DNA of 29,552 bases from Holosporales bacterium (GTDB lineage Bacteria; Pseudomonadota; Alphaproteobacteria; RUG11792). Below the pieces are notes generated by a model that was not told the DNA's origin, did no database searches, and saw nothing but the letters and a program-made list of their open reading frames with translations. The DNA is taken from assembly GCA_031279295.1 (NCBI GenBank), contig JAITIT010000035.1, positions 1-29,552 on the forward strand, in the 5' to 3' direction. Numbering within the stretch: position 1 is the first letter of the stretch; each line of letters starts with the position of its first letter. A program made the position numbers and the translations under genes. Shown one piece after another: positions 4,305 to 6,320 of this stretch.

Positions 4305-5207
4305 GTGAAGCGAATAGAACCATGCTTATTACTCACCATCATTATCTGCGTTCAGACCGTTAATGCGAGCGACCAGCATGCCGTACCAATCAGCTCAATT
4401 GATGATATATCGACCACAGCCGAGACACAGGATGAGGCGGAACAACCCGCTGTCCCACTCTTACACCCCAACACCAGCACGACACCACCACAAGTGCCGG
4501 ACCTATCAACACCCGTAAACCCACCCGGAGTTGAACCGAATCTGACCGACGGTAGCATGAACAGGCGTACGGCCGGACACACGCGTCAAGAAAAAACATG
4601 CGGAGCTGCTCTGCAGCTAGCACTCAACAAGCGCATACCAATCCTAGATCTCAGCGGAACTGCGGATCTCAATGTCAATGGAATCACAACCGTAAAGGAG
4701 TTTGTCGAGGCGAGACGCGCGTCAAATTCATACGGAACGGGATCCAATAATATCGGCGTCAACCTGGCCGCGACTGGGGCGACCAGCGACACTATTACCA
4801 GAATCCTGGGAGAGCTCACCGAATATAAGGTGGTGCTCAATCTCTCCTGGAACCCACTGGTTAATGACGACGCACTTAACGCGATCATGCAACATGCCAC
4901 CAACGTGGTAGCGCTGAACGTTGCGGGAACACAAGTAACAGACGCTGGAGCATCGATGCTCGCCAGAAACATCCCCGGGAATATGCCAAACCTGAGATCA
5001 GTAAATTTTAGCAGAACCAACGTCACACAGGCTGGAATTAGCGAACTTGGAGCAGCAGTAAACAATGCGCAAACTACTGTGCAGAATGTTACACAGCCCT
5101 CTGAGGATGGAACGACAGACATACCACCCATTGCTCTACCCTCTACTGCTCCAACCTCTATAGGTAGCAGTCACAATACCCGGAGACATCCAATTACAAA
5201 GAGTTAG
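4305..5207 (+). CDS. Secreted hypothetical protein with short leucine-rich-repeat region
   Basis: Signal-peptide-like N-terminus (MKRIEPCLLLTIIICVQTVNA-SD). LRR-like units VLNLSWNPLVNDDAL, VALNVAGTQVTDAGA and RSVNFSRTNVTQAGI. Pro/Thr-rich flanks. Confidence 0.7.
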   Translation: MKRIEPCLLLTIIICVQTVNASDQHAVPISSIDDISTTAETQDEAEQPAVPLLHPNTSTTPPQVPDLSTPVNPPGVEPNLTDGSMNRRTAGHTRQEKTCGAALQLALNKRIPILDLSGTADLNVNGITTVKEFVEARRASNSYGTGSNNIGVNLAATGATSDTITRILGELTEYKVVLNLSWNPLVNDDALNAIMQHATNVVALNVAGTQVTDAGASMLARNIPGNMPNLRSVNFSRTNVTQAGISELGAAVNNAQTTVQNVTQPSEDGTTDIPPIALPSTAPTSIGSSHNTRRHPITKS

Positions 5208-5351
5208 TACAGTGTTGCGGTAAGCACCTTAAACATCGTTGTTACATTACTTGGAAATCTCCATGTCTTTCAAGTCGTCAATTCCGGAATTAGGAAAACT
5301 TGCTTCCGAGTCTTGGCCCATGGTATACTCTCATAAGTCGAGGGGGAAGGT

Positions 5352-6320
5352 GTGCGTGGCCGTATGTCGTTGGGCGACAAGCAGAGTAAAAAATCTAAGC
5401 AAGAGCAGCATGATGGCATGATATCTTCTATGGGGGAAAGCGGGCTCAACGCGGGAGTGGACAGGAAGCTCCTTATCAACTGTGTGCTGAGTGTGGCTGT
5501 CGCGATGGTCGCAACATTCGCTACGATGAAGATCGGGATGAGTTATCATGATGATAAGATACAGGAACTTCTCGAACAATGCTCTGCCCTAGAAAGCAAG
5601 ATAAAGAGTACATCAGAGTCAGTTATAGCAATGTCCGTAGCACTCACAAACATCCAAACAGAGATGAAGGCAGACAAAGAAACCGCAGCTCGTGTGTATA
5701 GCAGTGTGTCATCGCTGCAAGGCGAGATTGAGTCAATTAAAAAGGAGTTACACATCGAGCAAACACACCATCAGGAAGATGCTGTGGTAGAAAAGCATGA
5801 GCATGTTCTGTCACCAAAAGAACGGGAGGTTGAGGAATCACTAGGGCGTATGGTCGATAGCGGTATCCCATTTGCGGACTACGTAGAATCCAAAAAGAAG
5901 GAAGTCGACCTTGCAGGTTGTAGTTCATACAAGAATTTGATGAGGTTCTCAAAGGAGCATGTGAAGTCCGTTACGGATTTGATGAAGGAGTGTACAGCGG
6001 TTGGGGAAGCCGTGTTTTCCATGAATATAAACGAGTCGTTCTGGGAAAAACACAAGAGAATCATCAAGGAGAAGATCGTCGGAGCTATCAAGTTTGGACA
6101 GGAGAGTGCTGATGATGATAAAACTCTCTTCAAAAACGCATGCCAAAAATTGGCGGATGGAGATATAGCTGGAGCACTGGCACTGTTCCAACAGATTAAA
6201 ACAGAGAACGAAGAGCTCAACTCTCTTATTGCAGAGACGAAAAAGAGGGCAGAGCTTAATGATGTCTTTGCAACATTCAAGGAAGAGCTTCATAAGAAGC
6301 ATGAGAGCAATGAGGAATAG
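5352..6320 (+). CDS. Mic60/mitofilin-like (COG4223-type) membrane-anchored coiled-coil protein
   Basis: One N-terminal TM segment, a long coiled coil, and a C-terminal region with VDSGIPFAD and KLADGDIAGALALF resembling the alphaproteobacterial mitofilin domain (pattern recognition). Start may be ATG 5364. Confidence 0.65.
   Translation: MRGRMSLGDKQSKKSKQEQHDGMISSMGESGLNAGVDRKLLINCVLSVAVAMVATFATMKIGMSYHDDKIQELLEQCSALESKIKSTSESVIAMSVALTNIQTEMKADKETAARVYSSVSSLQGEIESIKKELHIEQTHHQEDAVVEKHEHVLSPKEREVEESLGRMVDSGIPFADYVESKKKEVDLAGCSSYKNLMRFSKEHVKSVTDLMKECTAVGEAVFSMNINESFWEKHKRIIKEKIVGAIKFGQESADDDKTLFKNACQKLADGDIAGALALFQQIKTENEELNSLIAETKKRAELNDVFATFKEELHKKHESNEE

Follow-up and report, generated by a model that had tools for sequence, protein, structure and literature searches.

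The window analysed here, the whole 29,552-nucleotide stretch of contig JAITIT010000035.1 in assembly GCA_031279295.1 (Holosporales bacterium), carries on its forward strand a gene of 318 codons plus stop (5364..6320). From sequence comparison, and with a probability of about 0.88, we regard its product as a true, highly diverged homolog of Mic60. Mic60, the organiser of mitochondrial cristae, is the sole subunit of MICOS (the mitochondrial system that organises cristae and contact sites) to have come down from the bacterial ancestor of mitochondria. What it originally did is debated, the formation of bioenergetic membranes being set against general contact sites of the cell envelope. The original prediction for this locus had suggested a divergent Mic60/mitofilin homolog outside its usual hem-gene context in a reduced lineage. 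In agreement with this suggestion, profile-profile comparison, transitive homology, a bridge anchored in synteny, and look-alikes in language-model features and predicted structure all point to Mic60.

The mic60-like protein (P0001) belongs to a family of which 29 members were aligned (alignment A2), with identities to the query of 20-44 % apart from two close relatives. All 29 members show the same order of a transmembrane (TM) anchor, a long helix and a C-terminal domain. E224 and R295 are invariant across the family, while G167, P169, F218, F226, W227, R232, E236, K237, A259, L298, F302, F305 and E308 are conserved in at least 90 % of its members. This conservation at such low identity indicates that the motifs are not chance strings and that the gene is real and under selection. 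The GTDB order of the source comprises 41 genomes of 0.5-1.1 Mb, all in one family. The family profile detects a single full-length copy in 30 of the 41 genomes, in 17 of the 23 genomes of high quality, and in 20 of the 23 genera. Among named sequences, the closest protein relative is from a metagenome-assembled genome (MAG) labelled 'Holosporales bacterium'.

As the reference for canonical Mic60, 19 genes from 19 alphaproteobacterial families, found via the Pfam Mitofilin model PF09731, were aligned (alignment A3), and the C-termini were compared. A Pfam tally included one unpublished genome (G080), which otherwise contributes to no locus, alignment or claim. With hhalign, A2 matches A3 at a probability of 94.6 % and an E-value of 7e-8 over 154 columns, covering query residues 157-311. 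The GxPF motif, the aromatic/basic block, the A..L..GD(L/I)..A motif and the final, arginine-containing helix (R295) are all in register. The score of 63.9 compares with values of up to 14.9 for 60 column shuffles, up to 25.6 for 60 shuffles of 15-column blocks, and 22.7 for the reversed alignment. A family hidden Markov model (HMM) restricted to the C-terminal domain, with no coiled coil, scores 11 Mic60-type proteins at 11-31 bits; eight of them are confirmed by Pfam Mitofilin or by the canonical locus, and most align in register over ~150 positions. The best of 3,954 decoy open reading frames (ORFs) from the source genome reaches 6.5 bits, below all 11 of these proteins.

Relatives bearing a recognisable Mitofilin domain were also reached from the family itself. 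When the five closest homologs were combined into a profile and 1.84 billion representatives were searched with it, without a word index, 27 strong family members were retrieved, followed by P0033, P0034, P0036, P0039 and P0041 at library-wide E-values of 3e-6 to 5e-4. On Pfam Mitofilin, 58-80 bits are reached by P0033, P0034, P0039 and P0041. P0036 and P0039, both metagenomic, carry an N-terminal HemD fusion of an already published type. As a side observation, a Cro/YdaS-like helix-turn-helix segment lies between the HemD and Mic60 halves of these two fusions.

Two mic60 genes whose identity is anchored by their neighbours connect the family with canonical Mic60. P0044, of 327 amino acids, is encoded in a 'Candidatus Paracaedibacteraceae bacterium' MAG (DAHVSZ010000090.1; L082:964-1947) and first surfaced as a weak match of the five-homolog profile search. 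Its gene is flanked by hemD (HEM4, 109 bits) and orf52 (HemY_N, 64 bits), forming the canonical hemD-mic60-orf52 locus, and the adjacent Orf52 has 438 amino acids, two TM segments, tetratricopeptide (TPR) repeats and a Zn-ribbon. P0044 matches the family in hhalign at 94.5 % (E 8e-8, 219 columns, stalk included) and the canonical set at 95.4 % (E 2e-8). Its last helix, KRRNLEDAFNLFKVRFEAF, is like the family's KKRAELNDVFATFKEEL, but the canonical tryptophan is kept in P0044. The second gene belongs to a 1.7 Mb genome of a different alphaproteobacterial family (G118), encodes 350 amino acids (L054:973-2025) and lies directly upstream of an Orf52 gene. Its product is recognised by A3 at 98.9 % and is matched by the family profile at an E-value of 2e-5 per genome.

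A quick IQ-TREE analysis of the C-terminal 200 residues (56 rows) groups the family and P0037 into a single clade (SH-aLRT 99), and ~2.3 substitutions per site lie between this clade and all canonical sequences; the first branch on the canonical side is formed by the Paracaedibacteraceae pair. Because of the long branches and the compositional heterogeneity, both of which were flagged, we read the tree only as compatible with vertical descent plus acceleration.

All parts of the protein could be related to its position along the plus strand. The hydrophilic N-terminal tail (residues 1-35; 5364..5468) is poorly conserved in A2, has a confidence score (pLDDT) below 50 in the AlphaFold2 (AF2) model and, by analogy with canonical Mic60, is presumed to be cytoplasmic. 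It is followed by a single TM anchor, KLLINCVLSVAVAMVATFATMKI (residues 36-58; 5469..5537), which is conserved in the alignments A1 and A2; the best 19-residue Kyte-Doolittle window begins at residue 36 with a mean of 2.18. The long helix predicted by AF2 for residues 63-128 (5550..5747) is a putative coiled coil. This region gives only weak matches to coiled-coil families and aligns with the coiled coil of the Paracaedibacteraceae Mic60. The mitofilin-like C-terminal domain, supported by hhalign, AF2 and ESM Atlas, spans residues ~151-311 (5814..6296) and consists of eight helices, the last one long; its size is ~165 residues, and in the AF2 model the helical part extends over 151-317.

Within this domain, the motif G167-I-P169-F170 (SGIPF at 166-170; 5862..5873), conserved to at least 90 % in A2, lies opposite 'sg.pf' in the canonical profile. 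Conservation within the family is highest in the cationic and aromatic helix ESFWEKHKRIIKEKIV (residues 224-239; 6033..6080), which aligns to the canonical 'W.dR' block and has a lower pLDDT than the rest of the domain model. This helix (ESFWEKxKRIIKEKI) would be the best candidate for a lipid- or membrane-binding element; a hydrophobic-moment scan of the protein singled out no clear amphipathic lipid-binding helix. The C-terminal helices DDKTLFKNACQKLADGDIAGALALF ... KKRAELNDVFATFKEEL (residues 251-317; 6114..6314) are equivalent to ARAE..L..GDL..AV.EL ... W L..A.ARL of canonical Mic60 and correspond column by column to canonical Mic60 and to both bridge alignments. The elements named in the original prediction are all present in the translation, namely the TM segment, the coiled coil (the predicted helix 63-128), GIPF, ESFWEK...IVG at residues 224-241 and DDKTLFKNACQKLADGDIAGALALF at 251-275. 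Its parsing of GxPF and A..GD(L/I)..A(L/V) as Mic60 motifs falls on exactly equivalent columns of canonical Mic60 in the hhalign comparison of A2 with A3.

The full-length AF2 model is poor, with a pLDDT of 62. The C-terminal 174 residues, modelled with the 29-sequence alignment, gave a pLDDT of 87.3 and a predicted template modelling score (pTM) of 0.80, with eight helices of which the last comprises 35 residues. The redefined Mitofilin domain has been described as a pair of four-helix bundles, both of them spanned by the last helix, and as comprising ~164 residues in the alphaproteobacterial protein (PMC11092495). The predicted domain model would fit this description in helix count and layout. 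For residues 145-318, the nearest ESM Atlas cluster by language-model features reaches 0.89 with 190 of 256 features shared, and the nearest cluster by structure a TM-score of 0.71 over 161 residues (query 149-318). Both clusters are proteobacterial, and PF09731 is carried by 25 % (feature) and 19 % (structure) of their members. As no family member scores on PF09731, neither can be the protein's own cluster.

Several results weigh against the assignment. PF09731, with a gathering threshold of 27.4 bits, gives no match to the mic60-like protein at E ≤ 10, does not appear among the Pfam families that a noticeable share of the 29 members match, and finds nothing above the cut-off in the source genome or in the 41 genomes of the order. 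The HMM of canonical Mic60 gives the protein 9.3 bits, and the top of the ranking among the ORFs of its own genome is taken by coiled-coil proteins. Foldseek returned nothing from the PDB at E ≤ 0.001 with either the full-length or the domain model; the partial match to the mitochondrial Mic60/MICOS core (PDB 7PV1) covers 50 residues, is tied with many unrelated helical bundles and does not rise above this background. Three columns invariant in A3, namely G176 (the Gly before the 'V.T' block), R221 (the Arg of 'vRR') and W269 (the Trp of 'W L..A'), are not kept; where they align, the family has variable residues, Lys or Leu/Ile. Six of the 23 high-quality genomes have no detectable copy, so the gene is not indispensable. 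The gene order hemC-hemD-mic60-orf52 is not present at the locus in the window, and, yebC aside, no neighbour is conserved across genera (5 kb on each side, four other genera). For topology, oligomerisation, membrane binding and partners, we rely on inference throughout.

The negative Pfam result is explained by the insensitivity of PF09731 in AT-rich, reduced Alphaproteobacteria, as the same model also misses the G118 Mic60 (no match at E ≤ 1) and the hemD-flanked Paracaedibacteraceae Mic60, where it is absent among the 25 best Pfam matches. The original prediction had named the lack of a profile or structural match as grounds for rejecting the homology; since PF09731 misses the mic60-like protein, this rule would wrongly reject a true relative. 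Composition bias makes tests of a single sequence against a profile useless here. Pfam and NCBIfam scans of the protein gave only weak coiled-coil or noise matches (GH123_cat, COG6_N, SlaB, BamD; E ≥ 0.002), and the family profile, run as an HMM against the sequences of the PDB, found coiled coils only. Weak PF09731 matches in the order fall in the coiled-coil/low-complexity part of the model. The one inspected, L003:28-2439 in genome G019 (E 5e-5, N-terminal low-complexity part of the model), is encoded downstream of TolQ-TolR and is TolA. The label 'CwlO-like peptidoglycan hydrolase' (JGI), given to the family member P0005, is unsupported, with no hydrolase domain among the family's 25 commonest Pfam matches.

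Three other explanations were weighed. The protein could be a genuine mitofilin-domain protein that derives from a Mic60 paralogue rather than from the canonical hem-locus gene, in which case its job may differ. The long branch that separates the family from all canonical sequences (~2.3 substitutions per site) and the absence of a hem or orf52 neighbour would fit such an origin, as would the length of 318 amino acids, but canonical Mic60 is equally short elsewhere, with 327 residues in Paracaedibacteraceae and 350 in G118. Furthermore, one Mic60-like gene was found per genome and no canonical copy in the 41 genomes, the Orf52 partner is retained in parallel, and among the canonical branches the syntenic Paracaedibacteraceae gene comes closest and has the C-terminal KR..L..AF..FK..F helix in common with the family. 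We consider a paralogous origin unlikely. The mic60-like gene is probably the ortholog of alphaproteobacterial mic60, of which it would be a fast-evolving descendant.

That the likeness to Mic60 merely reflects helical and coiled-coil composition, in an unrelated, lineage-specific, membrane-anchored helical protein, appears very improbable. The signal persists without the coiled coil and through the column, block and reversal controls, it extends over ~150 columns in register with matching motifs, and it is transitive via a synteny-validated Mic60. The cross-comparison with the Orf52 profile was not significant, and the look-alikes in ESM Atlas are Mitofilin-bearing clusters. We give even less credit to a host-directed or surface effector, such as an inclusion-membrane-type or secreted coiled-coil protein, although the locus is rich in secreted proteins: other genera keep the mic60-like gene but not its neighbours, which encode a leucine-rich repeat (LRR) protein with a signal peptide and a small secreted protein. 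The weak Foldseek rows include IncA and CagL, but such effector-like rows have probabilities of only 0.09-0.14. Instead of a cleavable signal peptide, the protein has an internal anchor that follows its first 35 residues, and all specific evidence favours Mic60.

A diverged counterpart of the partner Orf52 is also present. An Orf52-like protein of ~380 amino acids with two TM segments and helical repeats is encoded in 37 of the 41 genomes of the order and was reached via weak HemY_N matches. Pfam HemY_N stays below its cut-off in the relatives (at most 19 bits) and does not match the copy of the source genome, G000:C10:393-1511 (+) (= L068:393-1511), which lies outside the window. The weak HemY_N match in the source genome proved to be a TPR lipoprotein, BamD-like by eye. 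When the Orf52-like alignment (A5) was compared by hhalign with 15 Orf52 sequences encoded downstream of mic60 in Alphaproteobacteria (A6), the match reached 95.1 % with an E-value of 3e-8 over 327 columns beginning at the N-terminal TM region, and the score of 69.2 compares with at most 26.2 for the controls. The cross-comparisons of Mic60-like with Orf52 and of Orf52-like with Mic60 gave nothing significant. The match ends at template position 393 of 489, before the CxxC...CxxC zinc-ribbon, whose four cysteines are invariant in A6 and absent from the A5 consensus. The Orf52-like and mic60-like genes are located on different contigs, both here and in eight other genomes of the order that were compared.

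Neither hemC, hemD nor ferrochelatase was found in the source genome, and searches of the order's 41 genomes detected no hemD, heme-copper oxidase or cytochrome bd in any of them. The source genome encodes a TLC ATP/ADP translocase and an F-type ATPase, and judged by its genes the lineage looks like a non-respiring energy parasite. Two Omp85 proteins are present, one of them BamA-sized. The original prediction had further described the gene as a relocated copy, which is not shown by the data: it is the sole Mic60-like gene found in an 85 %-complete assembly (734 kb, 76 contigs, of which the window is contig 71). As hemC, hemD and ferrochelatase were not found in this genome and hemD in none of the 41, we conclude that the hem context was lost rather than that the gene moved.

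Alphaproteobacterial Mic60 bends membranes, forms a ~250 kDa complex with Orf52 and interacts with BamA, and a general role as a tether between the inner and outer membranes has been suggested for species without intracytoplasmic membranes (ICM) (10.1101/2022.06.14.496148). By analogy, the mic60-like protein would be anchored in the inner membrane, with the stalk and the domain in the periplasm. The coiled-coil stalk may oligomerise, and the mitofilin domain may bind or bend the membrane and contact outer-membrane partners (BamA) together with the unlinked Orf52-like protein. The odds are roughly even, we infer, that the Mic60-like/Orf52-like module acts as a general inner-outer membrane tether and envelope organiser and not as a builder of bioenergetic membranes. 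The main task of the protein would probably lie in the envelope rather than in respiration. The tether role is favoured because no oxidases, haem synthesis genes or hem-operon context were detected, and an order without detectable terminal oxidases argues against a bioenergetic-membrane role. More tentatively, and with chances that we place somewhat short of even, the Mic60-Orf52 pair would be an envelope tether with BamA that is independent of respiration, haem and ICM and mattered enough to be kept despite genome reduction to below 1 Mb in obligate endosymbionts without terminal oxidases; envelope tethering, not crista or ICM biogenesis, would then be the ancestral core function of the MICOS precursor.

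With canonical alphaproteobacterial Mic60, for example that of Cereibacter sphaeroides and Rhodopseudomonas palustris (10.1101/2022.06.14.496148, Curr Biol 2023), the protein shares the arrangement of TM anchor, coiled coil and mitofilin domain. The motifs G-x-P-F and A..L..GD(L/I)..A, the aromatic/basic motif and the final helix, which is long, can be aligned, and an Orf52-type partner and BamA occur in the source genome. In contrast to the canonical proteins, the mic60-like protein is shorter, Lys/Glu-rich where the canonical set is Ala/Arg-rich, PF09731-negative and without the canonical Gly/Arg/Trp columns, and its gene lies away from hemC/hemD and orf52 in a lineage without detectable haem synthesis or terminal oxidases. 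P0044, the nearest syntenically validated relative, has a similar length and the same C-terminal helix. It differs in its hemD-mic60-orf52 locus, in keeping the W in 'GWLQEAEKR' and the 'IHIRK' block, and in the Zn-ribbon kept by its Orf52. We know of no Mic19/CHCH or Mic10 partners in bacteria.

Gammaproteobacterial HemX, which is distantly related to Mic60 and is encoded in the hem locus as a coiled-coil protein with a membrane anchor, has no mitofilin domain (10.1101/2022.06.14.496148), whereas the mic60-like protein has a mitofilin-like one; no HemX family is among the Pfam and NCBIfam matches listed for it at E ≤ 10. Mitofilin domains called cryptic are also known from Euglenozoa, where Mic60 is reportedly replaced by two proteins (10.1101/2025.01.31.635831); here, there is one bacterial protein of standard architecture. 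Eukaryotes that gave up respiration are reported to have lost MICOS along with it (PMC13644384), whereas here Mic60 is kept without detectable oxidases.

The gene is contained in one ORF on the plus strand, 5352..6320, which encodes 322 amino acids when read from GTG 5352. While this GTG marks the mechanical beginning of the ORF, translation most likely starts at ATG 5364 and yields 318 amino acids, because the close homologs P0003-P0005 begin with MSLxDK. A purine-rich GAGGGGGAAGG stretch lies upstream of this ATG at 5340-5350, and scanning the surroundings of the gene for promoters and terminators yielded nothing informative. An antisense ORF (5879..6280, minus strand, 133 amino acids) that is seemingly 'conserved' in relatives was rejected as a shadow of the conserved coding strand. 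The upstream gene (4305-5207, plus strand) encodes a protein of 300 amino acids whose N-terminus resembles a signal peptide and in which Pfam recognises one LRR_6 repeat (E 1.8e-6); beside the mic60-like genes of other genera, this gene is not kept. Downstream, a secreted protein of 111 amino acids and a major facilitator superfamily (MFS) transporter are encoded. The flanks within the window hold no hem genes. In two other genera, a yebC/TACO1-family gene is located directly upstream in the same orientation (L078:6151-6954 (-), L080:4145-4861 (+)); in the window, yebC is not at that position.

The mic60-like protein is a new, cryptic member of the known Mic60 family in an unusual, non-respiring setting. 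Where surveys rely on PF09731, their counts of Mic60 in AT-rich or reduced Alphaproteobacteria are too low, and published maps of its presence and absence in Holosporales- and Rickettsiales-like lineages may have to be re-examined with lineage-aware profiles. To our knowledge, early surveys scored Rickettsiales-like lineages as being without Mic60, and in the literature searched we found no paper tying Mic60 to Holosporales-type endosymbionts beyond a table entry. A cryptic Mic60 together with a cryptic Orf52 across an order of 0.5-1.1 Mb endosymbionts offers natural-experiment evidence for the envelope-contact view of Mic60 (10.1101/2022.06.14.496148). If the reading as a tether is true, it would stand in contrast to eukaryotes, where MICOS is discarded when respiration goes.

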